From: an uncultured Actinomycetes bacterium
Lineage (GTDB): Bacteria; Actinomycetota; Thermoleophilia; RBG-16-64-13
Direction: 5' to 3'
Length of the DNA: 64,000 bases
NCBI GenBank assembly: GCA_963714175.1
Contig: CAVQNN010000003.1
Span: forward strand, 961,643 to 1,025,642
Part shown: positions 36,249-57,347 of the stretch, piece after piece
Position numbering within the stretch: the stretch's first letter is position 1
Layout of the letters: each line of letters begins with the position of its first letter
Made by a program: the position numbers and the translations under genes
The notes under the pieces: generated by a model
What the model saw: the letters and a program-made list of their open reading frames with translations, nothing else
What the model was told of the DNA's origin: nothing
Databases searched by the model: none

Positions 36249-37526
36249 ATGGCTATGACCATGACCGAGAAGATCCTGGCACGAGCTGCCGGCAAGGAGT
36301 CGGTCGCTCCAGGCGATCTCATCATGGCGAAGCTCGACCTGTGTCTCGGCAACGACGTCACCTCCGGGGTGGCCATCGACGAGTTCGAGAAGGCCGGGTT
36401 CGATCGCGTGTTCGATCCTGAGAAGATCGTGCTCATCCCCGACCACTTCACGCCCAACAAAGACATCAAGACCGCGGGCCTGGTCATGCAGATGCGCGAG
36501 TTCGCCAAGAAGCACGGTCTCGTGCACTGGTACGACGTGGGCCGCGTCGGCGTGGAGCATGCCTTCCTGCCCGAGCAGGGCTTGGTCGGTCCCGGTGACG
36601 TGGTCCTGGGCGCCGACTCTCACACCTGCACCTACGGCGCGCTGGGAGCCTTCGCGACCGGGGTCGGCTCCACCGACCTGGCCGGCGCCATGGCGATGGG
36701 TGAGGCCTGGTTCCGCGTACCCGAGACCCACCGCTTCGACTTCGAAGGAACGTTGACCCGCTACGTGACGGGCAAAGACCTCGTGCTCTACGCCATCGGT
36801 CAGATCGGGGTGGACGGGGCTCTCTACAAGGCCATGGAGTTCACGGGCTCGGCCATCCGTGGTCTCTCCATGGATTCGCGCTTCACCATCTGCAATATGG
36901 CCATCGAGGCCGGGGGCAAGAGCGGCATCATCGCTCCCGACGACATCACCAAGGCCTACGTCGAGGGCCGGTTCCGCCGCAAGCCCGTCTACTACACCTC
37001 CGACGCCGACGCTGTCTACGAGAAGACGTATTCCTGGAAGGCCGAGGACGTGCCGCTCATGGTGGCCAAGCCGCATCTGCCTTCAAACACACAGCCGGCC
37101 GAGGAGCTGAACAGCATCAAGATCGACCAGGTGGTCATCGGTAGCTGCACCAACGGTCGCATGGAGGACCTGCGCCAGGCGGCGGAGATCCTGCGCGGAC
37201 GCAAGGTCAACAAAGACATCCGTTGCATCGTCATCCCGGCGACCCAGGCCATCTGGAAGCAGGCCATGGACGAGGGTCTGTTCGACGTGTTCATCGAGGC
37301 CGAGGCGGCCGTGTCGGCGCCCACCTGCGGACCCTGTCTGGGCGGCCACATGGGCGTCCTGGCTGAGGGCGAGAGGGCCGTGTCGACCACCAACCGCAAC
37401 TTCGTGGGCCGCATGGGCCATCCGGGCTCCGAGGTCTACCTGGCCGGCCCGTATGTGGCGGCAGCCAGCGCGGTGGCCGGCTACATCGCCACCCCTGACC
37501 AGATCGGTGGAAGGAGGCAGCCATGA
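36249..37526 (+). CDS. leuC: 3-isopropylmalate dehydratase large subunit
   Basis: MTEKILA, PDH, GADSHTCT, IGSCTNGR, TCGPCLG, STTNRNF. Confidence 0.95.
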   Translation: MAMTMTEKILARAAGKESVAPGDLIMAKLDLCLGNDVTSGVAIDEFEKAGFDRVFDPEKIVLIPDHFTPNKDIKTAGLVMQMREFAKKHGLVHWYDVGRVGVEHAFLPEQGLVGPGDVVLGADSHTCTYGALGAFATGVGSTDLAGAMAMGEAWFRVPETHRFDFEGTLTRYVTGKDLVLYAIGQIGVDGALYKAMEFTGSAIRGLSMDSRFTICNMAIEAGGKSGIIAPDDITKAYVEGRFRRKPVYYTSDADAVYEKTYSWKAEDVPLMVAKPHLPSNTQPAEELNSIKIDQVVIGSCTNGRMEDLRQAAEILRGRKVNKDIRCIVIPATQAIWKQAMDEGLFDVFIEAEAAVSAPTCGPCLGGHMGVLAEGERAVSTTNRNFVGRMGHPGSEVYLAGPYVAAASAVAGYIATPDQIGGRRQP

Positions 37527-38020
37527 CGGCGCTGCGCGGACGCGCCTGGACCTTCGGTCGCGACGTCGACACCGACCTCATCATCCCGGCCAGGTACCTG
37601 AACATGAAGACGGCCGCAGAGCTGGCAGCACATGTGATGGAAGACGCCGACCCCACCTTCTCCAGCAAGGTCAAGCCGGGCGACATCATCGTGGCCAGAG
37701 AGAACTTCGGCTGCGGCTCTTCTCGCGAGCATGCCCCCATCGCCATCAAGGGCGCAGGGGTGTCACTCGTGATCGCCAAGAGCTTCGCCCGCATCTTCTA
37801 CCGTAACGCCTTCAACACCGGACTGCCGATCCTGGTCGCGCCTGAGGCGGTGGACGGCATCAAGGAAGGCGACGAACTGACGGTCGATCTCGCCTCCGGC
37901 GAGATCGCCGACCTGACCTCCGGCGTGAACTACCAGGCCCAGCCACTCCCGCCCTTCATGCGCGAACTAGTGGACGCGGGGGGCCTGCTCCCCTATCTGA
38001 AGAGCCGCGCGAAAGGATGA
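37523..38020 (+). CDS. leuD: 3-isopropylmalate dehydratase small subunit
   Basis: VDTDLIIPARYL, NFGCGSSREHA, SFARIFYRN. Confidence 0.95.
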   Translation: MTALRGRAWTFGRDVDTDLIIPARYLNMKTAAELAAHVMEDADPTFSSKVKPGDIIVARENFGCGSSREHAPIAIKGAGVSLVIAKSFARIFYRNAFNTGLPILVAPEAVDGIKEGDELTVDLASGEIADLTSGVNYQAQPLPPFMRELVDAGGLLPYLKSRAKG

Positions 38021-39105
38021 GCATGGAATACAAGATCGCCGTCATGCCCGGCGACGGCACGGGCCCCGAGGTCGTGGCCGAGGGACTCAAGGTCCTCAAG
38101 GCGGCGGCCGCGCGCCAGGGCTTCACCTACAGCACCACTCACTACGATTTCGGCGGCGAGCGCTACATGCGCACGGGCGAGACCCTGCCCGACTCGGCCA
38201 TCGAGGAGTTCAAGCAGCACGACGCCATCTTCCTGGGGGCCATGGGGCATCCCGACGTGGCTCCGGGCATCCTGGAGCAGGGCGTTCTGCTGAAGGCGCG
38301 GTTCGCGCTGGATCAGTACATCAACCTTCGGCCGGTACGCCTCATCCCCGGGGTCGAGACTCCCATCAAGGGCAAGGGGCCCAAGGAGATCGACTACTGC
38401 TGTGTCCGCGAGAACAGCGGCGGGATGTACACGGGCATGGGCGGCAACTCCCGGCCGGGCACCAAGGACGAGGTGGCCATCCAGGAGATGGTCTACACCT
38501 ACGACCAGGTGGCCCGCTGCCTCCGCTTCGCCTTCGACTACGCCCGCAAGTACGGCAAGAAGTCCCGCGGACTCGGCCCGAACAACACCCTGGCCCTCAT
38601 CGGCAAGTCCAACGTGCTCACGCACATGTACAAGCTGTGGAACCGCGTCTTCGCCGAGATCGGCGACGAGGAGTACCCGGACATCAAACGTGAGTACTAC
38701 CACGTGGACGCCACCTGTCTCTACATGGTGGCCAGCCCGGAGATGTTCGACGTCATGGTGGTCGAGAACATGTTCGGCGACATCGTCACCGATCTGGGCG
38801 CCATCACTCAGGGCGGCCTGGGCGTGGCCGCGGGTGGCAACATCAACCCCGAGGGCGTCAGCATGTTCGAGCCCATCGGCGGAACGGCTCCCATGTGGAC
38901 CGGCAAGAATGCCATCAACCCTCTGGCGGCCATCGGCGCTGTGCAGATGATGCTGCAGCACCTTGGCGAGACCGAGGCCGCTGCTCTCATAGACAAGGGC
39001 ATAGAGCACGCGGTCAGCAAGATGAAGTCCATGGTCGCCAATGAGATGGGCATGGGCACCGACGCCGTCGGCGATCTGGTGGCGGAGTACGTAGCCAAGG
39101 CGTAG
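38017..39105 (+). CDS. leuB: 3-isopropylmalate dehydrogenase
   Basis: GDGTGPEV, NLRP, RENS, KSNV, NMFGDIVTD, MFEP; in operon with leuCD. Confidence 0.88.
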   Translation: MSMEYKIAVMPGDGTGPEVVAEGLKVLKAAAARQGFTYSTTHYDFGGERYMRTGETLPDSAIEEFKQHDAIFLGAMGHPDVAPGILEQGVLLKARFALDQYINLRPVRLIPGVETPIKGKGPKEIDYCCVRENSGGMYTGMGGNSRPGTKDEVAIQEMVYTYDQVARCLRFAFDYARKYGKKSRGLGPNNTLALIGKSNVLTHMYKLWNRVFAEIGDEEYPDIKREYYHVDATCLYMVASPEMFDVMVVENMFGDIVTDLGAITQGGLGVAAGGNINPEGVSMFEPIGGTAPMWTGKNAINPLAAIGAVQMMLQHLGETEAAALIDKGIEHAVSKMKSMVANEMGMGTDAVGDLVAEYVAKA

Positions 39106-39155
39106 CGGCTACCGGGGGCCTCCGCCGCGGCGGCGCGTTCCAATGTCAGGCACCA

Positions 39156-39200
39156 ACTGGGCGCCGCCATTCCTTCGGGAATGGCGGCGCCCAGTCTTTC
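39156..39200 (+). terminator. Intrinsic terminator after leuB
   Basis: 18-bp perfect stem actgggcgccgccattcc / ggaatggcggcgcccagt with cUUCGg loop, followed by ctttc. Confidence 0.8.
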
Positions 39201-39279
39201 CAGCGAGACACTTCCGGCCGAGACGTTCTGGGTGGTATTAGTGAGTGTGCGGTCAGGGTGAACAACGAGGAGGCTCGGT

Positions 39280-39759
39280 ATGTCGAACGATGAGGCCGAA
39301 CTGGCGCAGAAGGGACCGTTTCACGACCTCGAAGCACATGCGGCGTCGCTTCTGCGCCGCCGCGCCAGCCGCAACCTCAACGTCCTCGAGGCTGAGGAAC
39401 GGCGATCGGTGGGTCAACGGATGGCCGACACCTTCGCCAGGGGCGCGGGTAGTTGGCGCTTCATCATCGGGTTCTTCATCATCCTTGTGGCCTGGATGGC
39501 GATGAACGCGATTGCTGGACTGCGACATTGGGATCCGTACCCTTTCATCCTGCTGAATCTCGTGCTGTCGTGCGTGGCCGCGATCCAGGCTCCAGTGATC
39601 CTCATGAGCCAGAACAGGGAGGAGGCTCGGGATAGAATCAGAGCCGAAGCCGACTATGAGGTCAACCTGAAGGCGGAGGTTCTTCTCGAGCATCTGACCA
39701 AGGAGGTGGAGACTCTGAAAGCAATGCTGGCGGAGAGCCAGGGCCGACCTGGTGTCTAA
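39280..39759 (+). CDS. DUF1003 membrane protein
   Basis: GSWRFI, WDPYPFILLNLVLSCVAAIQAPVILMSQNR. Confidence 0.92.
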   Translation: MSNDEAELAQKGPFHDLEAHAASLLRRRASRNLNVLEAEERRSVGQRMADTFARGAGSWRFIIGFFIILVAWMAMNAIAGLRHWDPYPFILLNLVLSCVAAIQAPVILMSQNREEARDRIRAEADYEVNLKAEVLLEHLTKEVETLKAMLAESQGRPGV

Positions 39760-39834
39760 ACACCTGAAGGCAGGGGTATGCTGACAGGGTATCGAATAGT
39801 GCTGCGAAAGCGGTCACAAAGGGAGGGAGGCCAC

Positions 39835-40269
39835 ATGGGATTCATCGTCGTTGGGGTGGATGGGTCTGAGGGCGCGACACTCGCCCTGGAGTACGCCATC
39901 AAGGAGGCTGCTCTGCGCGGCGCCAAGCTCAGACTGGTCAGCGCCTGGGAGATCCCGGCCTCGGTGCTTGCCAGTGTGGTGGCCGGCAAGGAGTTCTACG
40001 AGGAATTCCGCGACAATGCCGTGCAGGTGGCTCGCGACGCGGCGGCGCTGGTGGACGAGCGCGATCCGTCGGTAGAGCACGAGGAGATGGTGGTCGAGGG
40101 ACAGGCGGCGAAGGTCCTCTTGGAGAACTCGGCCGACGCGGACTTGATGGTGGTCGGCCGGCGCGGTCGGGGGACATTCCGGGACATGATGCTCGGATCG
40201 ATCAGCCGGCATGTAGTCGCGCACGCCAAGGTCCCCTTGGTGATCATCCCCTCGCCCATGCCTAAGTAG
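39835..40269 (+). CDS. Universal stress protein
   Basis: IVVGVDGS, ADLMVVGRRG..LGSIS. Confidence 0.92.
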   Translation: MGFIVVGVDGSEGATLALEYAIKEAALRGAKLRLVSAWEIPASVLASVVAGKEFYEEFRDNAVQVARDAAALVDERDPSVEHEEMVVEGQAAKVLLENSADADLMVVGRRGRGTFRDMMLGSISRHVVAHAKVPLVIIPSPMPK

Positions 40270-40275
40270 GGCACG

Positions 40276-41133
40276 TTGCTGATCGACCGCAGCACCACCG
40301 CCCTGGTGGTCGATTCGACCGCCGACCTGCCCGACAACCTGGCTCAGGACCCGAACCTGACCATGGTGCCGCTCACGGTCTTCTTCGGCGACGAGGCCTA
40401 TCTTGACTGGGTGGAACTCAAGCCGCAGCAGTTCTACGAGAAACTGGCGACCGCTGAGCGACTGCCGACCACCTCCCAACCCTCCCCGGGCATCTGGGTC
40501 GAACTCTATAGTCGGCTACGAGAGCAGTATCAGAGGGTCTACTCCGTGCATCTCAGCGCCGAGTTCAGCGGCACATGCGAAACAGCCCGCGCGGCCGCCG
40601 CGGGGATCGACGGGGTCACGGTGGTGGACTCCCGGCTGGCCACGGGGGGCATCGCTCTCCTTGTGGACCGCATGATGGAGCGGATCGACCGCGGAGTGAC
40701 CCAGCAGGAGTTCGACGCCTACATCGAGTACTTCCATGCCAACAAGACGTTCCTCTTCACAGTGACAACGCTGGACTACCTCCAGAAGGGCGGCCGGATC
40801 GGGCGAGCCTCGCACCTGGTGGGCACCCTGCTCAACATCAAGCCGGTACTGACCATCGACGACGGGGTGGCCGACGTGGTGAAGAAGACCCGGGGGATAG
40901 GCCAGGCCTTGGAGACGATGCGCGACTGCCTCCTGGAGCGCACGAGGCCTGGGTCCGACGTGTACGCCAATCTGTCGCACGGTCTGAATCTACCGGTCAT
41001 GGAACGGCTGCAAGACTTGCTTCTGGAGGTCAACGATCGGCGCATCCATCTCCGTCCCCCGAGCATCATCGGTTCGGTGATCGGTACATACAGCGGCCCA
41101 AAAGCGGTGGGTGTCTGCTTCATCGAGGAATAG
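40276..41133 (+). CDS. DegV-family fatty-acid-binding protein
   Basis: VDSTADLP, PTTSQPS, LSAEFSGT, VDS, LDYLQKGGRI, LNIKP. Confidence 0.92.
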   Translation: MLIDRSTTALVVDSTADLPDNLAQDPNLTMVPLTVFFGDEAYLDWVELKPQQFYEKLATAERLPTTSQPSPGIWVELYSRLREQYQRVYSVHLSAEFSGTCETARAAAAGIDGVTVVDSRLATGGIALLVDRMMERIDRGVTQQEFDAYIEYFHANKTFLFTVTTLDYLQKGGRIGRASHLVGTLLNIKPVLTIDDGVADVVKKTRGIGQALETMRDCLLERTRPGSDVYANLSHGLNLPVMERLQDLLLEVNDRRIHLRPPSIIGSVIGTYSGPKAVGVCFIEE

Positions 41134-41296
41134 GGGCTGAATGCGAGTGTTTGCGCCACCTAGGAGACCTCCAGACACCTCGCCGGTCCTATTCAGCTAT
41201 GCGTGGGTTCTGCCGAAAAGGGATAAGGCAGTGTCTCGTTAATCCGTATCTGCGTGCCCCGCCCGGTCACGGGTGTCGAGGAGGTTGAGCGCCGCG

Positions 41297-44200
41297 ATGG
41301 CAAAGGACCAACTGAAGGAACTGCTCGAAGCGACGGGCAAGGTGCTTCTGGAGAACGCCTGGAGGGGCGTGGCGGCGTTCTCATCAGACGGTTCGTGCCT
41401 CTGGGCGAATGAGCTGGCAGCCGCCGTTGTCGGTGTGCCTTTGGCTCAGCTGGTCCTGCATCCGCTGGACGACGCCCTCTGGGGAGAAGGGTCGGAGGCC
41501 GACGCGCGCCAGGCGACGACTGCCAATGGACGCGTGCGGCGCGAGCTGAAGCTCAGCCGGCCGGACGGGGAAGTGCGATGGATCGAGCGCACCTTGGTGG
41601 GAGTCGACTTCCGGGGCAAGAAGATCCCGGTGATGGTATTCGAGGATCTCACAGACACGAAGCGAACCCAGGAGTCGCTGAAGCGGGCCGAACTCGCCAT
41701 CGCCCAGGCGAGCGAGATGATCTACTGGCTCCGCGAAGACTCAAGGTTCGTATACGCCAACGACGAGATCTGCGCGCTGCTTGGGTACACGCGCGATGAG
41801 CTGATGACCATGTCGCTGTGCGACGTCTCTCTTTGCGCCCCCGGCGCATGGGAGGAACAGTGGGAAGCGACGAAGACGGCGGGATCGAGCCGCCAGATCA
41901 CCACATTCCGCGCGAAGAGCGGAGACACCGTCGAGGTGGAGACCAAGGCCAGCTTCATCGGAGTTGCAGAGTCCGAGGGCGACTATCTCTGCGTTTTTGG
42001 GCGCGACGTCACCGAGCAGAAGAGGCTGGAGGATTCGCTGCGCTTCACCCAGATCTCGATGGACAGCTCCCTGGATCACGTCTACTGGGTCAACAAACTG
42101 GGCTATATCACTTGGGTGAGCGAAGGGCACGCTCAGGCTGCTGGGCTACACCCGTGAAGAGATGGTCGGCGCTCACATCTCCGAGTTCACTCCCAAGGTC
42201 ATCTCCGAACAGGGTGGCAGCTGGGAACTGGGGTGGAAGAGAGTCAAGGAGCAAGGCTCGGAGTACATGGAGACCACCATCAGGGCCAAGGACGGCCGGC
42301 CGGTGCCTGTCGAGGTGAAGATCACCTATGTCGAGCACCAGGGTGAGGAATACAACGTCGTCTTCGCCCGCGACATCTCAGAACGGAAGAAGTTGGGCAC
42401 GGCGCTGCGCGCGGCTGAGATGGCCATTGAGAAGGCTCAGGAACTGATCTTCTGGGTGGGCGATGATTCCAGACTCATCTACGTGAACGAGGCCACCTGC
42501 GCCCGAACCGGCTACAAGCGCGAAGAGCTGATCGGGATGACCATCTTCGATATCCATCCCACCGCCAACCGCCCCTGGGATACCGAGGAGGTCAAGGCCA
42601 AGGGCGGAAAGATGGTGTTCGAGGCCCCGTACGTAACCAAGAGCGGAGAGGAATTCGACGTCGAGGTCAACGCCAACCACGTGGATCTCGGCCCCGGCGG
42701 GGAATTCCTCTGCGTCTATGCGCGCGACATCAGCGAGCAGAAGCGCGCGGCGCGCTCGCTGGGGCTGGCCGAGTACTCCATGGACAAGGCCGGTGATCTC
42801 ATCTACTGGATCGACTCCGACGGCCACATTGTCTACGCCAACGATGCCGCCTGCGCGACGAGCGGTTATGCACGCGAAGAATTGCTCGCCATGACCCTCC
42901 ACGATCTCGACCCCTGGGCCCCCAGCCCTTGGGCGGAGTACTGGGAGCGGACGAGGGAAACGACGGTCTCCGCTCAGCATTCAGGTCAGGCATCGCAAGA
43001 AGAGCGGTGAGCTGCTCGACGTGGAGATCAGAGCCAACACCGTCGCGTTCGAGGGCAAGGAATACCGCTGCATTTTCGCTCGTGACATCAGCGAGGAGAA
43101 GCGCACGGAAGAGTTGATGCGCATCACTCAGATCTCGGTGGATCGAGCCAACGAGCAGATCTTCTGGATCAACTCCGAGGGCAAGTTCGTCTTCGCCAAC
43201 GAGGCTGCCCTCCGCGAGTTGGGTTACACGTGGGAAGAGCTCTCGGGCATGGACATCCACCAGGTGGACGCTACTGAACAACTGGAGTCGAGCAACTTCG
43301 CCGAGGAGTTCGCCAAGAGCAAGAGCGAAGGCTCCGTCAAGGCCGAGAAAGTCGCACCGCCGCAAAGACGGCACGACAATGCCCGTGGATGTGAACATCA
43401 CCTACGTGGAGTACGCGGGCAAGGAATACCGTCTCGTGGTTGCGCGCGACGTCACCGAGCGTAGGGCGTTGGAGAAGTCGCTGCGCCTGACGCGGTTCTC
43501 GGTGGATGGCGCCAATGATCAGATAGCCTGGGCAGACGCGCGGGGCAGGTTCATCGATGTCAACGACGCCATGTGCCAGCAGCTCGGGCTACACGCGGGA
43601 AGAGTTCCTGCAGATGGGCATCGACGACTTGAATCCGAATCATTCCGCGCGACGGTCGGGAAGTCCTCGAGAGTTCAAGACGCGGGGGATCGGGGCGACT
43701 GAAGAGGCCGTTGCCTATCGCAAAGACGGCACCTACATGCATGTGGAGATCAGCGCAAGCTTCGTGGAGTACGAGGGCGAGCAGTACTACTTCCTTTTCT
43801 CCCGCGACATAACCAAGCGCAAGGAGCTGGAGGAATCGCTGCGCCTGACGCAGATCTCGGTGGACCGCACCGGGGACATGATCTTCTGGATCAACGCTGA
43901 GGGCAGGGTCTACTTCGCGAACGACTCCGCCTGCAGCCAGCTGGGCTACACACGCGCAGAGCTCAGGCAACTGACCTACCGCGACCTGACTGTCGACGCG
44001 CCTGAGGATTGGCGCATGGTCTTCGAGTCGACCTGAAGGACGGGATCGCCAGGCTCACTGAGCGCGTGCTGCGCCGCAAGGACGGCACCGAGATCGCGGT
44101 GGAAGCCAACGCTGCCTACACCGAGTACGAGGGCTGGCCGTACATGCTCGTCCTTGCGCGCGATGTAAGCGAACGCAAGCGGCTGGAGGAATCGCTGCGG

Positions 44201-47200
44201 CTGGCCCAGTTCTCCGTGGACCACGCCGGGGAGCAGGTGCTCTGGGTCGATGAGGACGGCAAGATCTTCTATGCCAACGAGTCCGCTCGCAGAGAGCTGG
44301 ACTACACGCGGGAAGAGATGCTGGGGCTCAGCATCTACGACATCGACCCCACTGTCACCGAACCGTGGACGGAAGCATGGGCGAACCTCAAACGAATTGG
44401 GACTCATACCTTCGACACCATCCATCGCAGGAGAGACGGCGTCGAGATGCAGGTGGAGACCACCTCCAGCTACCTGGAGTTCGAAGGTAGGGGCTACAGC
44501 TCCGTGGTCGCGCGCAACGTCAGCGAGCGCAAGATGTTGGAGAAATCGCTGATTCTGACGCAGATCTCGGTGGAGCGTGCCGGCGACATGATCTTCTGGG
44601 TCAATTCAGACGGCGAGGTCTTCTTCGCGAACGACGCCACCTGCGTGGAGTTGGGCTACTCGCGGGAAGAGCTGGTGGGCTTGAACTACCTCGAAGTGGC
44701 ACCCCGTCTCCCGGCCGTTTGGAGTGAGGCCCTGGATCTGGTCAAGGAGCACGGCGCTCTGGTCCGGGAGAGCGTGCTTCGTCGCAAGGACGGCACCGAG
44801 GTACCGGTGGAGGCCAGTTCCACCATGGCGGAGTATGAGGGCCGGGAGTACATCATCGTTGTTACGCGCGACATCACCGAGCGCATCAAGGCCCAGTCGG
44901 AGTTCGACACCGAAGTCGCCAGGCGGCGGGTCCTGGCCGAGCAGTCCCGGGACGGAATAGTCATCATGGACGTGACCGGCGCCGTACGCGAGGCCAATCG
45001 AGCCTACGCGCGCATGCTGGGCTACACCCTGGATGAGGTCTACCAGCTTCACATCTGGGACTGGAACGCCGCCAACCTCCCCCGGGAAGTGCTGGTGGGC
45101 ATGCTCGAAGATGTCGGTCCCGAGGGCAACGACCTCGAGACTCTGCCACCGTCGCAAAGACGGCACCGTGATCGATGTCGAGATCAGCAGCATCGGTGAG
45201 ATGGTCGGCGGCGAGAAGCTCATCTTCGCCGTATGCCGCGACGTCACCGAGCGCAAGAAGATGGAAGAATCGCTTCGCCTGACTCAATACTCGGTGGACC
45301 AGGTCGGTGACATGATCTTCTGGGTAGGGCCTGATGGCGCGAACATCCACGTGAACGAAGTCGCATGCCGGCAGTTGGGCTACACGCGAGAACAGCTGCT
45401 GGGCATGACGATGCAGGATCTGGACCCGTCGCTCACCGACATGAAGGCGGCCTGGGAAGGGGTCAAGCAGCAGGGCTCGGTGACAGACGAGACCAGCCTC
45501 GTCACCGCGGACGGTCGCGAGTTCCCCGTGGAGATCCGCGCCAGCTACCTGGAGTATGAGGGCCGGAGAATACAACCTCGTGGTCATGCGCGACATCACC
45601 GAGCGCCTCAAGGCTCAGTCGGAATTCGATACCGAAGTCGCCAGGCGGCGAGTCCTGGTCGAGCAGTCCAGGGACGGCGTCGTCATCATGGACTTGACCG
45701 GAGCTGTCCGCGAGGCGAACGAAGCCTACGCGCACATGCTCGGCTACACCCTGGGAGAGGTCCATCAACTCCACATCTGGGACTGGGACGCGGACATCGG
45801 CAAGGAAGACCTGCTGGCAATGCTCGAGGGGGTCGGCAACACGGGCGAGGACATCAGGACTCGCCACCGTCGCAAGGACGGAACCGTGATCGATGTCGAG
45901 ATCAGCAGTATCGGCGAGATAGTCGGCGGTGAGAAGCTTGTTTTCAACCTGTGCCGCGACGTCACCGAGCGCAAGAAGATGGAAGAATCGCTGCGCATGA
46001 CCCAGTACTCGGTCGACCACGCTGTGGAAGAGATCCTCTGGCTCGACGAGAACGGCCGGATAATGTCCGCCAACGATGCGGCCTGTGAGAAGTTGGGCTA
46101 CACCCATGAGGAGATCGTGAGCCTTACCGCCCGTGACTTGGATCCAACGGTTCCTGAGGACTGGAACAGGGTGTGGGGCGCGCTCAAGGAGAAGGGCGCG
46201 TTGACGCTCGAGACCACGCATCGCACCAAGGATGGGCAGGAGTTCGCGGTGGAGGTCCAGTCCAGCCTCATGGAGTACGAGGGCCGGGAGTACAACCTCC
46301 TCTTCGCGCACGACATCTCCGATCGCAAGAGCTTGGAGGAGTCGCTCCGCCTGACCCAGTTCTCGGTCGATCAGTCCGGAGACCAGATCTTCTGGTTGAC
46401 CCCCAAGGGCAGGTTCGTTCACGCGAACGACGCCACCTGCGATCAACTGGGCTACACACGTGACGAACTGCTGAACACGAACATTCGCGAGGTGGCTTCG
46501 GGGGTCAAGGAGGACTGGAAGGAATCCTGGGAGGAACTCAAGCGCGAGGGTTCGCTGACTTCGGAGCAGGTCTACCGGAGCAAGGACGGCCGTCAGACTC
46601 CCGTGGAGGTCCGCTCCCGTCACGTCGAGTGGGCGGGCAGGGAGTACGAGATCGTGTTCGCGCACGACATTACCTCGCGGAAGAAGATGGAGGAGAGGCT
46701 GCGCCTGACCCAGCTCTCGGTAGACCAGGCCGCGGACCAGACATTCTGGATCACCCCGGAGGGTCAGTTCGTCTTTGTGAACGACGCGACCTGCGATCAG
46801 TTGGGCTACACGCGAGAAGAGCTTCTGAGTATGACCGTCTTCGACGTCGATCCCACGCTTCCCAAGGGTTGGACAGGGGGTTGGGAAGAACTCAAACGGC
46901 GGGGCTCGCTGACGCATGAGGCCATTCACCGCACCAAGGATGGCAGGGACATCCCGATGGAGATCCGCGCCAGCTACGTCAAGCAGAACGGCAACGAGTA
47001 CAACTTCGTGTCGGCGCGCGACATCAGTGGCCGCAAGACGATGGAAGAGTCGCTCCGGCTGACGCAGATCTCGGTCAATCGCGCCGGCGACCAGGTTCTC
47101 TGGATCGATCCCGAGGGCAGGATAGTCTTCGTGAACGACGCCGCCTGCGAGCAGCTGGGCTACACCCGAGAGGAACTGCTCGCGTTGACCGTCTACGACC

Positions 47201-49497
47201 TGGATCACACGTTACCCAGGCCGTGGACAGGAGAATGGCTCAGGATCAAGGAACAGGGCTCGATCCTCCACGAGGCGATGCACCGCACCAAGAACGGTGT
47301 CGACATGCCCGTCGAGGTGAACGCGACCTACGTCGAGTACGAGGGCCGGGAGTACAACTTCGTCTTCGCCCGCGATATCACGGAACGCAAGAAGGCAGAC
47401 AACGCGCTGCGGATAGCGAAGGACAAGGCCGAGGCGGCCAACCGGGAACTGGAGCACTCCATCAAGCGCACCAACCAGCTCGCCGTCGAGGCCCAGGCGG
47501 CCAACGAGGCCAAGAGCGCGTTCCTGGCCAACATGAGCCATGAGATCCGTACTCCTATGAACGGTGTCATAGGCATGGTCGATCTCCTGCTCGACACCGA
47601 ACTCAACCCGGAGCAGCGCGACTACGCCGAGACGGTCCAGTCCAGTGCCGAGGCGCTCCTGACCGTCATCGGCGACATCCTCGACTTCTCGAAGGTGGAG
47701 GCGAAGAAGCTCGAATTCGAGAACATCGACTTCGACCTCCGGCTGACGCTTGAAGACATGATGGCCATACTCGCCATCAAGGCACACGAGAAAGGCGTCG
47801 AGCTGGCCGTCCTGGTCGAGCCCGACGTGCCGTCCGCGCTCTGCGGCGACCCCGGCCGTCTGCGGCAGGTACTGACGAACCTCGTGGGCAACGCGATCAA
47901 GTTCACCGAGGAAGGCGAGGTGGACGTTCATGTGATCCTCGAGTCGGAGGACGACCAGGGGGCGGTCATGCGCTTCGTGGTGCGTGACAGCGGCATCGGG
48001 ATCCCCGAGGCGGTGCTGGAGCAACTCTTCCACCCGTTCGTGCAGGCCGATGCCTCGACCACGCGACGTTACGGAGGTTCGGGGCTGGGTCTCTCCATCG
48101 CCAAGGGTCTGGTGGAAGCGATGGGCGGACAACTGGGAGCCGAGAGCACGGTGGGCGTCGGCTCCACCTTCTGGTTCAGTCTGCCGCTGTCCAAGGGCAC
48201 GCCTATCCCGAGCGAGTACGCCAGGATGGAGCTGGGCTCGGTGGCGGGAGTGCGGGTCCTCGGCGTGGACGACAGCGAGACGAACCGCAAAGTCATGGCC
48301 GGCATGCTTGACTCCTGGGGTTGCCGGCACAGCGAGGTTCCGGGTGCCAAGGAAGCGCTGGTCGCTCTCCGCCAGGCGGTGGCTGAGGGAGATCCCTACC
48401 GGGTGGCGGTCCTCGACATGTGCATGCCCGACATCGACGGCGAGGAACTCGCCATCGCGATCAAGGCCGATCCGGAACTGGCGGCGACTGGCCTTGTGAT
48501 GATGACCTCCGTGGGCGCTCGCGGTGACGCGGCTCGCATGGAGAAGGTGGGATTCTCCGCCTATCTGGTGAAGCCGGTGCGACAGTCGCACTTCTACGAC
48601 TGCCTGGCCGCGGTGGTGGGTCCGGATGTCCGGGAAGGCGATGGGGGCGAACGGCCCACCGCTCCTGCCCGCATCATCACTCGCCACACCCTGGCCGAAC
48701 GGGCCAGGAGACGCGCCTGCATATTGTTGGCTGAGGACAACCTGACCAACCAGAAAGTGGCCCTGAAGGCTCTTGAGAAGCTCGGCTACCAAGCCGATGT
48801 TGCCAACGATGGAGCTCAGGCGCTGCAGGCTACCAGAGACAAACTGTACGATCTTGTGCTCATGGACGTACAGATGCCGGGGATGGACGGCATGGAAGCC
48901 ACGCGGCAGATCCGAGATCCGAACTCGGGGACTCTCAACCCCTCAGTGGTCATAGTGGCCTTGACCGCGCACGCCATGTCGGGCGACAGGCAGAGGTGTC
49001 TCGACAACGGCATGGACGACTACCTGGCCAAGCCTATCAAGGCCGCGGAGCTGCAGGAGGTCATCTCCAAGTGGATGTCGGCCACGCCGCCTGGAGCTGA
49101 GTCTGAGGCTATCCCGCCTGCCCTGAAAGTGTCCGAGCGACCGGTCCGGGCGGTGTTCGATGAGAAGGTGCTCCTCAATCTCCTCGAGGGCGACCGCGAA
49201 TCGGCTGGTGAGATCGCCGACCAGTACTTGGCGGACGTTGCCGGGCAGGTGACCCGCATCCGCGAAGCCATCGAAGTGCAGGACGCCGTGCAGACGCGCG
49301 AAAGGGCGCATGCCCTCAAGGGATCGTCGGCAAGCGTTGGAGCAGAGGCCTTGCGATACTGTGCAGGCGACCTGGAGAAGCTGGCGGCGGCCGGTGATGT
49401 GACCAGTAACGAGGTGGCCGCGTTGGCTGCAGATCTCGAGCATCAGCTCAACCTGTTGCTGGCGTTTGCTGAAGAGAAGGGTGGGCGGCTGATGTGA
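41297..49497 (+). CDS. Giant cytoplasmic hybrid histidine kinase: 17 PAS - HisKA - HATPase - REC - REC - HPt (about 7 frameshifts)
   Basis: Repeated units (..SVD.AGD.IFW..G....ND..C..LGY.REEL ... EY..ARD(I/V)(T/S)ERK) continue across frames, then [31 protein letters not shown], two REC domains (LDMCMP, MDVQMP) and AHALKGSS. Confidence 0.85.
44830..46018 (+). repeat. Recent internal duplication of a PAS module (~44830-45300 vs ~45551-46018)
   Basis: Near-identical DNA and protein: [46 protein letters not shown]. Confidence 0.8.
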
Positions 49498-50469
49498 GAG
49501 CACTCGTCGCCGATGACGACACAGCGTCGCGTCTATTGCTTCAGAGGGTCCTGGCCAAGTGGGGGTACGACGTCGTCACTGCCTCCGAGGGCGAGGAGGC
49601 GTGGAGGATCCTCACGGGCGACAACTCGCCCGACCTCGCCGTCCTCGACTGGATGATGCCGGGGTTGGATGGGGTGGAGGTGTGCCGTCGCATCCGGGCT
49701 CTCGACCTGTCCAGCCCGCCGTACCTCATCCTATTGACCTCGCGCGGCGACAAACAGGACATAGCGACCGGTCTTGAATCCGGGGCTTCGGACTACGTTC
49801 AGAAGCCGTTCGATCACGACGAACTGCGAGCAAGGCTGCTGGTGGGCAGGAGGTTCGCCGAGCTGAACGCCAAGCTCCTGGAGACTCAGCGCGAATTGCA
49901 GAAGCAGGCGCTCACCGACCCTCTGACGCACATCATGAACAGGAGAGCCGTCATTGCTCGCCTGGGCGAGGAGATGGCTCGGGCCCCCAGGCAGGGAATG
50001 CCGCTCAGCATCGGGGTGCTGGACATCGACCATTTCAAGCTGGTCAACGATCAGCTCGGGCATGCTGGCGGGCGACACTGTGCTGCAGGCCGTCGTGGAG
50101 CGCACCCTCAGGGCTCTCCGTCCGTACGACGCTCTTGGGCGGATAGGCGGTGAGGAGTTCCTCATCGTTATGCCGGGGGTGGGCGCCAGGGACGCCACGA
50201 TAGTGCTCGAGCGGATAAGGAACATCGTCCGCCAGACTCCTGTCGAAACGCAGGGCGAGGAGATCACGGTGACGGTCAGCATCGGAGGCGCGGTCAGCGC
50301 GGGCGAATCGGGAGACGAGCTCATGCACACCGCCGACGTAGCTCTCTACCGGGCGAAAGGCGAGGGGCGCGACCGTGTCATCATGGCCGCGCGCAGGGTC
50401 TCGGAAGCAGAGAGCCTGGTCCAGGCTGAGGCGGAGGGCACCGCACCTCCGGGCCCCGCGGGCAGTTGA
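49494..50469 (+). CDS. REC-GGDEF diguanylate cyclase (PleD/WspR-like), frameshift ~50070
   Basis: LDWMMP receiver; TDPLT, DIDHFK, RPYD I-site, GGEEF; GTGA overlap with the kinase. Confidence 0.9.
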
Positions 50470-50686
50470 CAAGGCGGGTTCGGCGACGCTGAAGTGCCCG
50501 TGGGCCGCTGTTTTCCCAGTCCCTCGGTGGTCCACTGATATGCAAGAATCGCATGTTATACTGCCGGCGACAATCGATAGGAATCTCGTTCAGGCGCTGC
50601 GTAGAGACACGGTTTTCGCTCTTACCCCGCCCGCATGCAGTCTCGTCCTCTCGTTTGCCGCAACGTAACTCCAGATGGAGGAAGAC

Positions 50687-51034
50687 ATGAGTGCCGCGAA
50701 ACTGTACGTGGGCAATCTCAGCTACAGCACCACCGAGGCAAGCATCAGGGCTCTGTTCGAGCAGCACGGGGAGGTCGCCTCGGTCAACCTGATCACCGAC
50801 CGGGACAGCGGCCGACCCAAGGGCTTCGGCTTCGTGGAGATGGCGACCGACGAGGCGGCAGAAGCCGCCAAGGGCGCTCTGGACGGCACTGAACTCGACG
50901 GACGCACGATCAAGGTCGACACTGCCAAGGAGCCTGCGCCCCGCGCGCCCCGCTCGGGCGGCTACGGCGGCGGCGGCTATGGTGGCGGTGGAGGCGGCGG
51001 CTACGGCGGTGGTGGCGGCGGGCGTCGCTGGTAG
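50687..51034 (+). CDS. RRM RNA-binding protein with Gly-rich tail
   Basis: LYVGNL (RNP2), KGFGFVEM (RNP1), GGYGGG repeats. Confidence 0.95.
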   Translation: MSAAKLYVGNLSYSTTEASIRALFEQHGEVASVNLITDRDSGRPKGFGFVEMATDEAAEAAKGALDGTELDGRTIKVDTAKEPAPRAPRSGGYGGGGYGGGGGGGYGGGGGGRRW

Positions 51035-51059
51035 TCACCCTCTGAGATATCGAAGTCGT

Positions 51060-51094
51060 GAAAGCGCCGGCCCTTGGGCCGGCGCTTTCTTCTT
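51060..51094 (+). terminator. Intrinsic terminator after the RRM gene
   Basis: gaaagcgccggccc-tt-gggccggcgctttc followed by ttctt. Confidence 0.8.
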
Positions 51095-51136
51095 GCCCTG
51101 AGAGGCTGCTGATCCGCATCGACATCCACGGCGCCC

Positions 51137-51178
51137 TTGTAAAGTTAGCCGCTTAACACTAAAATAGGCGCACCTAAC
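51137..51178 (+). promoter_or_regulatory. Promoter with tandem DtxR/MntR-type boxes
   Basis: TTGTAA (51137), 17 bp, TAAAAT (51160). Dyads GTTAG-ccgc-TTAAC (51144-51157) and TAGG-cgca-CCTA (51165-51176). Confidence 0.65.
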
Positions 51179-51195
51179 TCCGCCGGAATGACTGG

Positions 51196-51668
51196 ATGAC
51201 CAACATGGGCAGCCAACTGCGAAGCAGCGAAGCGACAGTGAGACCGACCGGAGTCGGCGATGGTGATGCTCTCAGCGCCAGCCTCGAGGACTATCTGGAG
51301 GCCATCCTCCAGTTGGAGCGCACTTCGCGGGTGGCTCGCGTCAGCGAGATCGCGGAGCAGTTGAACGTATCGCGGCCTTCTGTGACGGGGGCGCTCAAGG
51401 GGCTGGCCAGTCGCGGGCTTGTTTCGCACGCACGCTACGGCCATGTGACTCTCACCGAGGAGGGGGCCGCCATCGCCGTTGAGGTGGAGGGTCGTCACGT
51501 GGCCATCCGTGAGTTCCTGACGGGCGTGCTGTCTGTCCCTGAGGAGAAGGCGGACCTGACTGCGTGCAGGCTCGAGCACGTGCTGGAGCCTGACGTGCTC
51601 TGCCATTTCGTCACCTACGCCGAGAAACACAGGCGGAGTCGGTCGGGAGCGCAGGGGGGCGGTCGTGA
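51196..51668 (+). CDS. DtxR/MntR-family metal-dependent regulator (3' end frameshifted)
   Basis: SLEDYLEAI, RVSEIAEQLNVSRPSVT, LTEEG, RH, ACRLEH. Confidence 0.9.
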
Positions 51669-51928
51669 CCTCGCTCGCCGAACTTCCCAACGATTCGCTG
51701 GCCAGGGTGGAGGCGCTTCCGCATTCTCACGGCCTGGCCAGACGTCTGATCGCGCTTGGGCTGACGCCCGGCGCGGAGGTGCGCGTGCTGCAGAACCGGA
51801 GTCACGGGCCGTTGATCGTCGAGGTGCACGGTGCAAGGTTGGCATTGGGCCGGGGCCAGGCAGCGCGGGTGGCTGTGGAGTTGGTGCCTCGCGAGCGCGC
51901 TGAGGCACTCTCAATGGTGGACGAGTAG
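51665..51928 (+). CDS. feoA: Ferrous iron transport protein A
   Basis: RRLIALGLTPG..GPLIVEVHGARLALGRGQA. Confidence 0.9.
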   Translation: MTSLAELPNDSLARVEALPHSHGLARRLIALGLTPGAEVRVLQNRSHGPLIVEVHGARLALGRGQAARVAVELVPRERAEALSMVDE

Positions 51929-53949
51929 TGGCGGAAGCGGGGGAACGGCCGCCTGACCTCAAACTCGCCCTCGCGGGCCAGCCCAACGTGGGCAAGAGCA
52001 CGGTCTTCAACGCCCTCACCGGGCTGGACCAGCACGTGGGCAACTGGGCCGGCAAGACGGTGGAGAAGAGAACGGGCCACTTCGAACACCAAGGCCTGCG
52101 TGTCGAGATCGTCGACCTGCCGGGCACCTACAGTCTCACCTCCGGCTCCGAAGAAGAGCGCATCGCCCGAGACTACCTGATCGAAGAGCCCCCCGACGTG
52201 GTGATCGCCATCGTCAACGCCGCCTCGCTGGAACGCAATCTCTACCTGGTCGCCGAACTGCTTCTGCTGCCCGTTCCGGTGGTCGTGGGGCTCAACATGG
52301 TGGACGTGGCCCAGAGTCACGGCCTGCACGTGGAGGCGCCGGTGCTCGAGGCGGCCCTGGGCGTCCCGGTGGTCGAGCTCGTCGCCAGCAAGCGCCGGGG
52401 TCTGCGCGAACTGGTCGACTCCGCGGCCAAGCTCGCGGAGCACCCCGAGTCGTTCAAGCCCAACCGTCCGGTGATACGCGACAAACACCGTGAGGTGCTG
52501 GCCCAGATCGAGACTCTCGTCGCCGACCGTGCTCCGGCCGGCTATCCTCCGGACTGGCTGGCCCTCAAGCTGCTGGAGGGCGACCCCGACGCGGCCAGAC
52601 TGGTGCGGACCAAGATCCCAGAGGCCTGGGAGCCTATCCACGTCATCTTGGCGGAACACGACGACGCCTATCTCGACATCGCCGGCGGCCGCTACGACTG
52701 GGTGGCCCGGATGGTGCGGGCAGCGGTGGTCAAGCCGCGTCGCGGGGCGCTCGTGATCACCGACCGTATCGACCGGGTGGCGACGCATCCCTTCTGGGGG
52801 CTGGTGGTGCTTCTCGCGGCGCTGGCGGCGGTGTTCGCCGTCACCTACGCCGTGGCCAATCCGGCGGCGGGCGCGCTGAGCGGGGTCGTCACGGGGGATT
52901 TGTCCGACTGGCTGCGCAACCTGTTGGAGGGGGCACCAGGGTGGCTCTCCGGTTTGATCGTCGACGGAGTGGTAGCCGGCGTCGGCACGACTCTATCCGT
53001 GGTGCCGATCCTCGTGGTCTTCTTCGCCGCCCTGGGATTCCTCGAGGATGTCGGCTACATGGCTCGCACGGCCTTCGTCATGGACCGGTACATGCACTGG
53101 ATCGGCCTGCACGGCAAGTCCTGCATGCCGCTGCTTCTCGGCTTCGGCTGCAACGTGCCGGCCGTTCTGGGCACGCGCATCATCGAGGAGCGCAAGGCGC
53201 GCCTGCTCACCATGATGTTGACGCCGTTCGTGCCCTGCACCGGCCGTTTGGCGGTGCTCGTGTTCCTGGCGCCGGCCTTCTTCGGCGCGAACGCCCCCTG
53301 GGCGCTGGTGGCGCTGGTGGGGGGCAACCTGGTCGTGTTGGCTCTGGTGGGCCTGGGGGTGAACAAGTTCGTCTTCAAGGGATCGCGCAGCGCCTTCATC
53401 ATGGAGATGCCTCTCTACCACGTGCCCAATGCCCGCACCATCGGGATCTACGTGTGGCGTAACACCTGGTCGTTCGTCAAGAAGGCGGGCACGCTCATCG
53501 TCATCATCTCGGCCATCGTGTGGGTTCTCTCCACCTACCCCGGGCCGGATCCGGCCGACAGCGTGCTGGGAGTGGTGGGGCGCTTTCTGGAGCCGGTGGG
53601 AGCGCTCATGGGACTGGGCGACTGGCGGCTGATCGTGGCTCTGCTGTCGAGCTTCGTGGCCAAGGAGAACAGCATCGCCACCCTGGGCATCTTGTTCGGC
53701 TCCGGAGTCTCGGGTGCCGCCGGCGCGGCCGGGGTCGGCCTGGCTGCCAAGGTGGCGGCCGTACTCACACCGGCCGCCGCCGCCGCGTTCCTGGTGGTGC
53801 AGATGACCTTCGTGCCCTGCGCGGCCACCATGGCCGCCATCCGGCAGGAATCGCGTTCCTGGCGCTGGACCTGGACCAGCGTGGGCCTGATGCTGGTGGT
53901 GGCCTTCGTACTGGGAGTGATCGTCTATCAGGTGGGGTCGCTGTTCTAG
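51928..53949 (+). CDS. feoB: Ferrous iron transport protein B
   Basis: GQPNVGKST, GNWAGKTVE, DLPG, NMVD, GFGCNVPA, FIMEMP. Confidence 0.96.
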   Translation: MAEAGERPPDLKLALAGQPNVGKSTVFNALTGLDQHVGNWAGKTVEKRTGHFEHQGLRVEIVDLPGTYSLTSGSEEERIARDYLIEEPPDVVIAIVNAASLERNLYLVAELLLLPVPVVVGLNMVDVAQSHGLHVEAPVLEAALGVPVVELVASKRRGLRELVDSAAKLAEHPESFKPNRPVIRDKHREVLAQIETLVADRAPAGYPPDWLALKLLEGDPDAARLVRTKIPEAWEPIHVILAEHDDAYLDIAGGRYDWVARMVRAAVVKPRRGALVITDRIDRVATHPFWGLVVLLAALAAVFAVTYAVANPAAGALSGVVTGDLSDWLRNLLEGAPGWLSGLIVDGVVAGVGTTLSVVPILVVFFAALGFLEDVGYMARTAFVMDRYMHWIGLHGKSCMPLLLGFGCNVPAVLGTRIIEERKARLLTMMLTPFVPCTGRLAVLVFLAPAFFGANAPWALVALVGGNLVVLALVGLGVNKFVFKGSRSAFIMEMPLYHVPNARTIGIYVWRNTWSFVKKAGTLIVIISAIVWVLSTYPGPDPADSVLGVVGRFLEPVGALMGLGDWRLIVALLSSFVAKENSIATLGILFGSGVSGAAGAAGVGLAAKVAAVLTPAAAAAFLVVQMTFVPCAATMAAIRQESRSWRWTWTSVGLMLVVAFVLGVIVYQVGSLF

Positions 53950-54083
53950 CAGGCTGCTGAAGACTCGCCCGACGAGGAGGTCGGACGCGCAAGTGGCGCG
54001 GTGCTTCGGCCGGGAACGGGCCAGATTTTGTATACTCCCCCTATTCAATGTTCGGAGCCCAGGCGAGGCCCAGGGAGGCCACC

Positions 54084-54957
54084 ATGCAGATCTACATCGA
54101 CGGCAAGTTCTACAGCGAAGAAGACGCGAAGGTCAGTGTCTTCGACCACGGTCTCCTGTACGGGGACGGTGTGTTCGAAGGCATCCGGACCTACGCGGGC
54201 CGGGTATTCGAACTCGACGCACATATCGACCGGCTGTACGCGTCGGCGCAGACCATAGCCTTGGAGATCCCGATCTCGCGCGACGAACTCGTCGAGGCCA
54301 TGATGGAGACCATCCGGCGCAATGACGTCATGGATGGCTACATCCGCCTGGTGGTGACTCGGGGCATGGGCGATCTGGGACTCAACCCGTGCAAGTGCCC
54401 AAAGGCCACGGTGTTCTGCATCGCCGGCGACATCACGCTCTATCCGGCCGAGGTCTACGAGAAGGGCTTCAAGGTCAAGACCCTCTCCACGCGGCGCAAC
54501 GATCCCCAGGCCATCAATCCGGCCGTCAAGAGCCTCAACTACCTGAACAACATCATGGGCGCGCTTGAGCTGCGGGGCACCGGCGTGAACGAGGGTCTGT
54601 TCCTTACCACTTCGGGCTACGTGTGCGAGTGCACGGCCGACAACTTGTTCCTGATCAAGGGGCGCAAGCTGATGACCCCGAACACGGCGCTGGGTGCTCT
54701 GCGCGGGATCACCCGGGGCGTGGTCGATGAGACTGGCCGCGGGCATGGGCATGGAGGTGGAAGAAGGGTTCTACACGCTCCACGACGTCTACAACGCCGA
54801 CGAGGCCTTCCTCACCGGCACGGCGGCGGAGGTCGGCCCCGTCGTGGAGGTCGACATGCGGCCGATCGGCGCGGGCGTGCCCGGCCCGGTGACCAGAGAC
54901 ATCATCGCCCGCTTCCACGAGTACGCTCAGAGCACCGGTACGCCGGTGAACAGATAG
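54084..54957 (+). CDS. ilvE: Branched-chain amino acid aminotransferase (frameshift ~54725)
   Basis: [47 protein letters not shown]. Confidence 0.93.
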
Positions 54958-54962
54958 GGCGC

Positions 54963-56564: not shown

Positions 56565-57347
56565 AGCTGGCTCGAATCACGTACCAGGGCGAGGTCTGCG
56601 AGGCCACCGTCACCTGCAGCGGGTATTTCATCGAGCCGCCGTCCAAGTACGCCGGGACCGCGGTGGGAGAGGATGAGGCTGTGTTGCTGGCTCCCGTGGC
56701 CCCAGGCAAGATCCTGGGCGTAGGCTGGAACTTCCGCGAGCACATCAAGGAGATGGCCGATCGACTGGCCGGCGACCAGGCTCCCAAGCAGAGGGCGGAA
56801 GATGTCCCCGACGCCATCCTGTTCCTGAAGCCGCCCTCCAGCCTGATCGGGCACCGCGACGCGATCGTCTATCCGCGCGACGCCACCCGGGTGGAGTACG
56901 AAGGCGAGCTGGCCGTGGTCATCGCGCGGGACACCCGGCGCGTGACCCCGAGCGAGGCCGTGCAGCGCGGTGCTGGGGTGGACCTGCGCCAACGACGTGA
57001 CCGAGCGCGATCAACAGGGCACCGACAAGCAGTGGTGGCGGGCCAAGGGCTACGACACGTTCGCGGTGGCCGGGCCGTTTCTGGAGACCGAGACCCCGGG
57101 GCCGGATGCCTGGATCCGCACCAGGGTCAACGGCGAACTGCGCCAGGCAGGCCAGGTGGGCGACATGATCCGCGACCCGTTACGGTGATCTCGCTGATCA
57201 GCCAGGCCATGACGCTTCAGCAGGGGCGACCTGATCATGCTGGGCACGCCGCCCGGAGTGGGGGAGCTCCACCCGGGTGACGAGGTTGAGGTAGATATCG
57301 ACGGAGTTGGGTACCTAAGGAATCCTGTCGTACTCGAGGAGGGATGA
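56561..57347 (+). CDS. Fumarylacetoacetate hydrolase family protein (frameshifted)
   Basis: [43 protein letters not shown]. Confidence 0.9.

Follow-up and report, generated by a model that had tools for sequence, protein, structure and literature searches.

This analysis concerns a pair of overlapping signalling genes on contig CAVQNN010000003.1 of an uncultured Actinomycetes bacterium (assembly GCA_963714175.1), lying in a stretch of 64,000 nucleotides (contig positions 961,643 to 1,025,642, forward strand) that we call the window and whose own numbering is used throughout. Ten overlapping stop-to-stop frames form a chain on the plus strand from 41243 to 50469, and all ten carry Pfam matches to PAS, kinase, REC or GGDEF families with E-values down to 4.6e-64, which excludes chance as the source of the domain matches. 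PAS families are matched in frames 1-8, the eighth adding HisKA, HATPase_c, two copies of Response_reg and Hpt, and frames 9 and 10 contain Response_reg and both halves of one GGDEF domain. We read this chain, with good if not complete confidence, as an intact two-gene unit in which a soluble and probably dimeric hybrid histidine kinase of ~2,730 residues (17 PAS units, DHp, ATPase, two receivers and HPt) is followed by a diguanylate cyclase, and in which the frame changes are errors. The genes and their parts are as follows.

41297..49497, plus strand: hybrid sensor histidine kinase gene, ~2,730 codons with seven frame changes read through (frames 2>0>1>2>0>2>0>1)
41345..41665, plus strand: PAS unit 1, a divergent N-terminal unit, orthologous in all relatives (E 4.6e-13; unit tree)
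41672..44890, plus strand: PAS units 2-10, ~118 residues each; units 3, 5, 6, 7 and 8 each contain one frame change
44900..45981, plus strand: PAS units 11-13; units 11 and 13 form a distinct PAS subtype, and there is one frame change apiece in units 11 and 12
45982..47394, plus strand: PAS units 14-17, which share a single unbroken frame; orthologues of units 15-17 occupy this end of the array in relatives too
47395..47703, plus strand: long helical linker and HisKA (DHp) with the H-box SHEIRTP, near-invariant among eight species
47845..48192, plus strand: HATPase_c catalytic domain (Pfam)
48250..49065, plus strand: two receiver domains (~48250-48603 and ~48721-49065; Pfam, residues read by eye)
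49210..49440, plus strand: HPt domain with the motif HALKGS (Pfam)
49494..50469, plus strand: REC-GGEEF diguanylate cyclase gene, ~324 codons, GTG start, one frame change near 50069

The kinase gene starts at ATG 41297, which is preceded by GAGGAGG, and its 8,201 bases, once eight extra bases are subtracted, give 2,730 codons and a stop. We take it to be one gene and not several, because the coordinates of the unit profile described below continue seamlessly over each frame change and because relatives encode the kinase in single open frames as long as 2,057 residues. For the present kinase, hydropathy predicts no membrane segment (averaged over 19 residues, the Kyte-Doolittle value peaks at 1.54 across all fragments). 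The C-terminal part has the composition of a hybrid, or unorthodox, histidine kinase with HPt: HisKA (E 2.1e-21) with its His in SHEIRTP, HATPase_c (9.3e-30), two receivers in each of which the acidic pair, the acceptor Asp, the Thr/Ser and the Lys are present by eye, and Hpt (6.3e-11) with its His. SHEIRTP and the HPt residue H639 are invariant in eight species.

To count the PAS units, a profile of 118 residues was built on 13 unbroken units, of which the window supplied 4 and one relative 9, and it places 16 units back to back between 41672 and 47394. This narrow profile undercounted PAS domains in distant proteins and was replaced by one broadened over three rounds on 120 long database relatives; the iterated profile adds the N-terminal unit and brings the total to 17. 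The general PAS model TIGR00229 matches 20 stretches and exceeds its cut-off in all eight kinase fragments, a number compatible with 17 units because these are cut at seven places, and PAS_9, PAS, PAS_4 and related models likewise exceed their gathering scores in all eight. Between-unit protein identities are mostly 30-57%, and a stereotyped linker occurs at 11 of the 16 junctions (counted by eye on the alignment and the matches). An earlier reading of this DNA, made from the sequence only, had joined the fragments into a protein of ~2,730 residues without a transmembrane segment, had counted 17 tandem PAS/PAC units mostly joined by a stereotyped linker and followed by HisKA-HATPase-REC-REC-HPt, and had placed a REC-GGEEF gene with an RxxD inhibitory site across the kinase stop, and each of these points agrees with what we find.

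There are seven frame changes in the kinase and one in the cyclase gene, all listed here with the observation that locates or explains them.

42125..42127, plus strand: frame change 1 (2>0), most likely one G too many in a run of GGG
42965, plus strand: frame change 2 (0>1), one base missing from a short-read contig (X3)
43340..43356, plus strand: frame change 3 (1>2), from the unit profile
43578..43591, plus strand: frame change 4 (2>0), most likely an extra G in CTCGGGCTAC
44027..44029, plus strand: frame change 5 (0>2), two bases missing from a short-read contig (X1)
45143, plus strand: frame change 6 (2>0), one base missing from a short-read contig (X2) and from paralogous unit 13
45567..45570, plus strand: frame change 7 (0>1), one A more than in the paralogous copy at 44846
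50069, plus strand: frame change in the cyclase gene (0>1), one base missing from a short-read contig (X3)

Logan contigs of four short-read runs, aligned to 41243-50469, have only five listed indels over these 9.2 kb, all of them bases left out of the contigs (42965, 44027, 44029, 45143 and 50069), and they fall at four of the eight predicted sites with the exact number of bases that restores the frame. Comparison of the DNA of units 10-11 with that of the paralogous units 12-13 reveals an extra base at ~45143 and another at ~45567, and each broken unit is one base (unit 8: two bases) over a multiple of three. In the cyclase gene, the match of all seven relatives' proteins to the window passes from one frame to another at 50059-50072. 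When syntenic open frames from two relatives are compared with the window by tblastn, ~13 further frame changes appear in ~37 kb elsewhere (near 5210, 7739, 7960, 12158, 12277, 13663, 13900, 17045, 25450, 27300, 30180, 30290 and 55540); another lies near 54726. The genome itself (3.46 Mb) comes in only 14 contigs and is 70.7% complete by marker genes, which suggests a long-read assembly with indel noise. Because short-read contigs lack the bases at half of the sites, because the broken units are one or two bases too long, and because some 13 comparable changes occur elsewhere in the window, we conclude that the eight frame changes are extra bases from an error-prone assembly, at least four of them by direct observation.

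Relatives and the growth of the PAS array

Matches to the kinase occur in all 31 genomes searched, as is expected for kinases; the true orthologues are found in the same genus and are 71-81% identical over the aligned part. Their PAS units number 5 (G011), 5 (G009), 8 (G008) and 11 (G013) in kinases that are single open frames, and 8 (G012), 9 (G001) and 12 (G010) in kinases with one frame change read through; three further genomes (G005, G006 and G014) were left out of the counts as too broken or cut by contig ends. Database orthologues, whose source names are 'Thermoleophilia bacterium' or 'Actinobacteria bacterium', have 5-9 units in 1,252-1,768 residues and 69-85% identity in the kinase module when those of at least 1,252 residues are taken, the five shorter of the 26 (768-1,200 residues, 1-4 units) being set aside because they look cut. 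Among proteins of at least 2,341 residues, none is more than 47% identical to this kinase. With 5 to 12 units in the relatives and no closer long protein in the database, we take the 17-unit copy to be the largest of its orthologue group. A search of genome contigs with the relay module returned distant hybrid kinases only (many phyla, 36-49% identity) and no close relative.

A tree of 75 units from eight species places unit 1 in one orthologous group across all eight, and the last two or three units are orthologous as well. Units 11 and 13 fall in a separate subtype clade with units 3 and 6 of G008, unit 3 of G009 and of G011, and unit 5 of G013. Most of the middle units cluster with others of their own lineage, a sign that the expansions were independent. 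Identity among the eight species is 79-84% in the kinase-relay module, and in the alignment of relatives it is 80-96% for the receiver of the cyclase, so that the core is constrained and the array fluid; the last three PAS units together with the DHp are 55-68% identical among orthologues. From the unit tree and these identities, the array appears to have grown and shrunk within the genus, from 5 to 17 units, by duplication of whole 118-residue modules, with the core and the cyclase staying nearly constant. A targeted and limited literature search found no published report of variation in PAS number within a genus.

Within this kinase, units 11 and 13 (44835-45310 against 45556-46030) are 86% identical as protein and their neighbours ~46% alike. 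At the DNA level, units 10-11 and 12-13 are 86% alike over 810 columns, and ~88% by estimate over the first ~470. In G008 the two units of the same subtype, 3 and 6, are also near-identical, and the likeness within both pairs points to recent duplication or gene conversion confined to this PAS subtype.

An AlphaFold2 model limited to units 15-17 and the DHp, computed on an alignment of eight orthologues, has a mean predicted local distance difference test (pLDDT) score of 82.7 and a predicted template-modelling (pTM) score of 0.35. It contains three PAS folds, each a five-stranded antiparallel sheet flanked by helices, with connecting helices 17-19 residues long; from the last PAS domain, a helix of 71 residues continues into the H-box. 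In the mechanism that we favour, a signal would be sensed by one or more of the PAS modules and passed along this helical spine to the kinase core, in a dimeric rod whose geometry we infer. Cofactor signatures of PAS-type sensors include NCRF(L) in LOV domains and CxxCH for c-type haem. None of the motifs sought (LOV NCRF, GRNC, CxxCH) occurs in the 75 aligned units of the eight species, a negative that covers LOV and c-type haem only, as b-type haem, flavin adenine dinucleotide (FAD) and other ligands are not excludable from sequence. The sequence-only reading had proposed that the array integrates many ligands or redox inputs or acts as a rod-like scaffold; the sequence reveals no ligand, and this proposal gains no support from it.

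A different and distinctly less probable view of the array, which we hold only tentatively, treats the kinase as a rod of variable length to which modules are added, or from which they are lost, in register (5, 5, 8, 8, 9, 11, 12, 17). The fixed parts would then be unit 1, the final two or three units, the relay core and the cyclase, and the middle units would serve as a tunable spacer or gain element, or as a platform for homotypic assembly, and not as independent ligand sensors. If this were true, the family would offer a naturally occurring test of the distance over which, and the manner in which, a PAS chain transmits a signal. Kinases with 5 to 17 modules on a near-invariant kinase-HPt core, each with its cyclase, constitute a ready-made series for testing the role of the modules, and one that could show whether additional PAS modules add inputs, change gain or do nothing.

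Probable coupling of the kinase to the cyclase

The start codon of the cyclase gene, GTG 49494, overlaps the kinase stop codon TGA 49495-49497 in a GTGA arrangement. Its product matches Response_reg at 3e-27 and GGDEF at 1.2e-12 and 3.3e-22 on the two fragments; the receiver Asp is present, and RPYD stands five residues before GGEEF (RPYD-ALGRI-GGEEF). The pattern RxYD-x5-GGEEF is kept in all eight full-length cyclases (seven from relatives, plus this genome's own paralogue), and in every one of the seven relatives examined the gene immediately after the kinase encodes a REC-GGDEF protein.

The whole genome contains three HPt domains. Of the two that lie outside this kinase, one is part of a paralogous cassette ~100 kb past the window (G000:C3:1110154-1115272; L115 3155-8273), which reads CHASE4, three PAS and HisKA-HATPase in a frame of 1,114 residues, then a REC-HPt frame, then REC-GGDEF. 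The REC-HPt frame of this cassette overlaps the HisKA-HATPase frame and is probably another product of a frameshift split. Given that the cassette joins a histidine kinase and HPt to a REC-GGDEF gene, the kinase-HPt and REC-GGDEF genes have been duplicated as a pair.

Modelling of the HPt domain with the receiver of the cyclase gave a score of 0.70 against 0.49 for the best control, so that the interface passes its controls; this mark was reached by 116 of 157 solved complexes and by 2 of 215 mismatched pairs. At least 94% of contacts are shared between runs, the partner pLDDT is at least 84, and the modelled interface brings HPt residues 636-648, around His639, against the active-site loops of the receiver (residues 8-12, 54, 83 and 104-105, around Asp52). 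It is worth noting that the model was made with our own alignments and that HPt-REC complexes have already been solved, so the pass may reflect likeness to known structures.

The overlap of the genes, the conservation of the pair in seven of seven relatives, the paralogous cassette and the HPt-REC model make the wiring of the kinase to the cyclase the best-supported inference about how this system works, and it supports the proposal, already made in the sequence-only reading, that the locus is a phosphorelay that sets levels of cyclic di-GMP (c-di-GMP). Most likely, the kinase switches on the neighbouring c-di-GMP-making enzyme. The phosphoryl group would travel from the His of SHEIRTP to the Asp of one of the two internal receivers, from there to the His of the HPt domain, and finally to the Asp of the REC-GGEEF protein, whose translation would be coupled to that of the kinase. 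Once phosphorylated, the REC-GGEEF protein would make c-di-GMP and be subject to product inhibition through its RxxD site.

The HPt domain might instead feed mainly other receivers, or the REC-GGEEF protein might be fed mainly by another kinase such as the paralogous CHASE4 kinase. The genome has ~16 GGDEF genes, the paralogous REC-GGDEF protein (55% identical) adjoins a second kinase with HPt, and close cousins of a true partner also pass this kind of complex modelling. We nonetheless regard such cross-wiring as improbable: it sits poorly with the GTGA overlap, with the adjacency of the two genes in all seven relatives, with their duplication as a pair, and with the presence of just three HPt domains in the genome.

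Integrity of the locus and its surroundings

Several observations weigh against reading the locus as intact. The short-read contigs bear on four of the eight sites, and of the other four (~42125, 43350, 43585 and 45567) only that at 45567 has indirect support, from its paralogue. Each supporting short-read contig is a single one, with a depth of 2.3 to 6.6, and the X3 contigs come from a different strain (31 differing letters in 453); X1 and X2 may derive from the sample behind the genome assembly. All seven breaks in the kinase lie in its first 4.3 kb and none in the last 3.9 kb, and their density exceeds the window background of ~1 per 2.7 kb, although errors clump elsewhere too. No listed short-read contig spans the whole array, and the lack of membrane segments is read from hydropathy.

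Were the frame changes real, the kinase would be a decaying pseudogene of which only the last 1,313 codons (45556-49497), with five PAS units and the relay core, are made. The clustering of all seven changes upstream of 45570 would then make sense, as would the ATG-started frame of 1,313 residues that remains; relatives with five PAS units and ~1,300 residues do exist, and gene callers recorded exactly this 1,313-residue product (P0121). We consider this very unlikely, because at three of the seven kinase sites the extra bases are absent from short-read contigs and at a fourth from the paralogue, because 4.3 kb of joined frame contain no in-frame stop and every unit gives a full-length match to the PAS profile, because neighbouring housekeeping genes have frame changes of the same kind, and because both the N-terminal unit and the start have orthologous counterparts in relatives.

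Least probable of all is that the count of 17 results from mis-joined or expanded repeats, which the single 354-base period of the units, the want of a spanning contig and the occurrence in some short-read contigs of 'joints' that skip units might suggest: the units are far too diverged for an assembler to collapse or expand them (after the 86% pair described above, the next best DNA pair is 75% alike), Tandem Repeats Finder detects no 354-base array because of this divergence, each side of a joint is just 20-30 bases long at 92% likeness, a pattern flagged as usual for other organisms or repeats, 27 of the 30 bins in X1 are covered by short-read contigs, and relatives carry 11 units in one open frame and 12 with one frame change read through. 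The unit-skipping joints were, on account of those short sides, not used as copy-number variants.

Outside the pair, the frame changes often come in twos, 100-250 bases apart (7739/7960, 12158/12277, 13663/13900 and 30180/30290), and this assembly indel noise will break gene calls throughout the genome. Between 54048 and 57280, open frames fuse Aminotran_4 with the start of an HMGL-like domain, and parts of LeuA with FAA_hydrolase; these are probably artefacts of the frame changes at ~54726 and ~55540 and not real fusions.

The kinase-cyclase pair is located inside a leucine-biosynthesis neighbourhood (leuCD, leuB ... ilvE-like, leuA; 36249-41133 and 50669-57280). Upstream are leuC/leuD-like, leuB-like, DUF1003, Usp and DegV genes, and downstream come genes for an RRM protein, a DtxR-like repressor, FeoA and FeoB, a class IV aminotransferase and LeuA-like proteins. 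The order of this neighbourhood, including Usp, DUF1003, DegV and the DtxR-FeoAB iron uptake unit, is kept in relatives, and the nearest upstream gene is as follows.

40276..41133, plus strand: DegV-family gene, upstream of the kinase; conserved upstream in three of six relatives tested

Nothing in this gene context points to the signal. Promoter and terminator scans gave no hit before the kinase and no terminator after the cyclase, one promoter-like site being found at 50535-50562, and Rfam has no match in 40900-51300. The ~110 bases before the RRM_1 gene (start ~50675) are conserved, in that translated frames of relatives align at ~75% through the stop at 50666-50668, and 50535-50675 is possibly a conserved leader.

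Comparison with known systems

The structures most similar to the modelled part of the kinase are other PAS proteins. Foldseek places the PpsR triple-PAS protein, DosP, MmoS, the Brucella LOV-PAS-HK, FixL and NifL at the top, and the nearest solved chains by sequence are structural-genomics PAS domains, MmoS, DosP and PpsR, with 3olo, 3ewk and 3bwl the closest. PpsR (PDB 4hh2), DosP, MmoS (3ewk) and the LOV-PAS-HK (6ph4) likewise have PAS cores linked by N-terminal helical extensions. By contrast, identity to them is 12-22%, the TM-scores are low because the domain arrangement is different or uncertain, and the motif search detected no flavin, haem or LOV signature in the units of this kinase.

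The cyclase resembles the PleD and WspR-type enzymes in having a receiver followed by GGEEF with an RxxD site five residues upstream. PleD is its best NCBIfam match, at a score that, taken on a fragment, lies below the equivalog cut-off (149.7 vs 474). PleD itself has two receivers, whereas this cyclase has one. For the C-terminal module of the kinase, the best NCBIfam matches are BarA, TorS and ArcB, which share the order HisKA-HATPase-REC-HPt, again below the equivalog cut-offs (BarA 496.6 vs 890; TorS 464.1 vs 676.5; ArcB 400.5 vs 838). Those three kinases are membrane-anchored; the present one has no hydrophobic segment, and it has a second receiver.

As a two-gene arrangement, the closest parallel is Hk1-Rrp1 of Borrelia burgdorferi, in which a kinase core with REC and Hpt is likewise encoded beside a REC-GGDEF regulator. 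According to a review, the cyclase activity of Rrp1 depends on phosphorylation of its receiver, and direct phosphotransfer from Hk1 was stated there as not yet confirmed (PMC4013479). Hk1 differs in having periplasmic sensing domains and one receiver, where our kinase is soluble with 17 cytoplasmic PAS units and two receivers, and there is no sequence orthology between the two pairs.

The sequence-only reading had called the array extreme, which it is not in the sense of lacking precedent. In a 2023 survey, proteins averaged two PAS domains, and the largest number, 19, belonged to a cyanobacterial kinase (UniProt A0A1Z4MZL8; PMC10468136). Our own search found 466 database relatives of 2,341-5,000 residues, and among 120 listed long relatives 30 have at least 17 PAS-like hits, with a maximum of 25, counts that are approximate as they come from the iterated, ad-hoc profile. 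Giant multi-PAS kinases are rare but already known, and a kinase with 17 PAS units is not unprecedented.

The locus thus opens no new kind of mechanism. What it offers is an apparently shattered 9-kb region of a noisy long-read genome that can be read as one working two-gene signalling unit, and a well-documented 17-PAS kinase for a class that is numerous in databases and essentially unstudied. The published and database kinases of this class have, like ours, very long PAS arrays ahead of a kinase core; ours belongs to an actinobacterial (Thermoleophilia-named) lineage, and because the others are at most 47% identical to it, the arrays arose independently.

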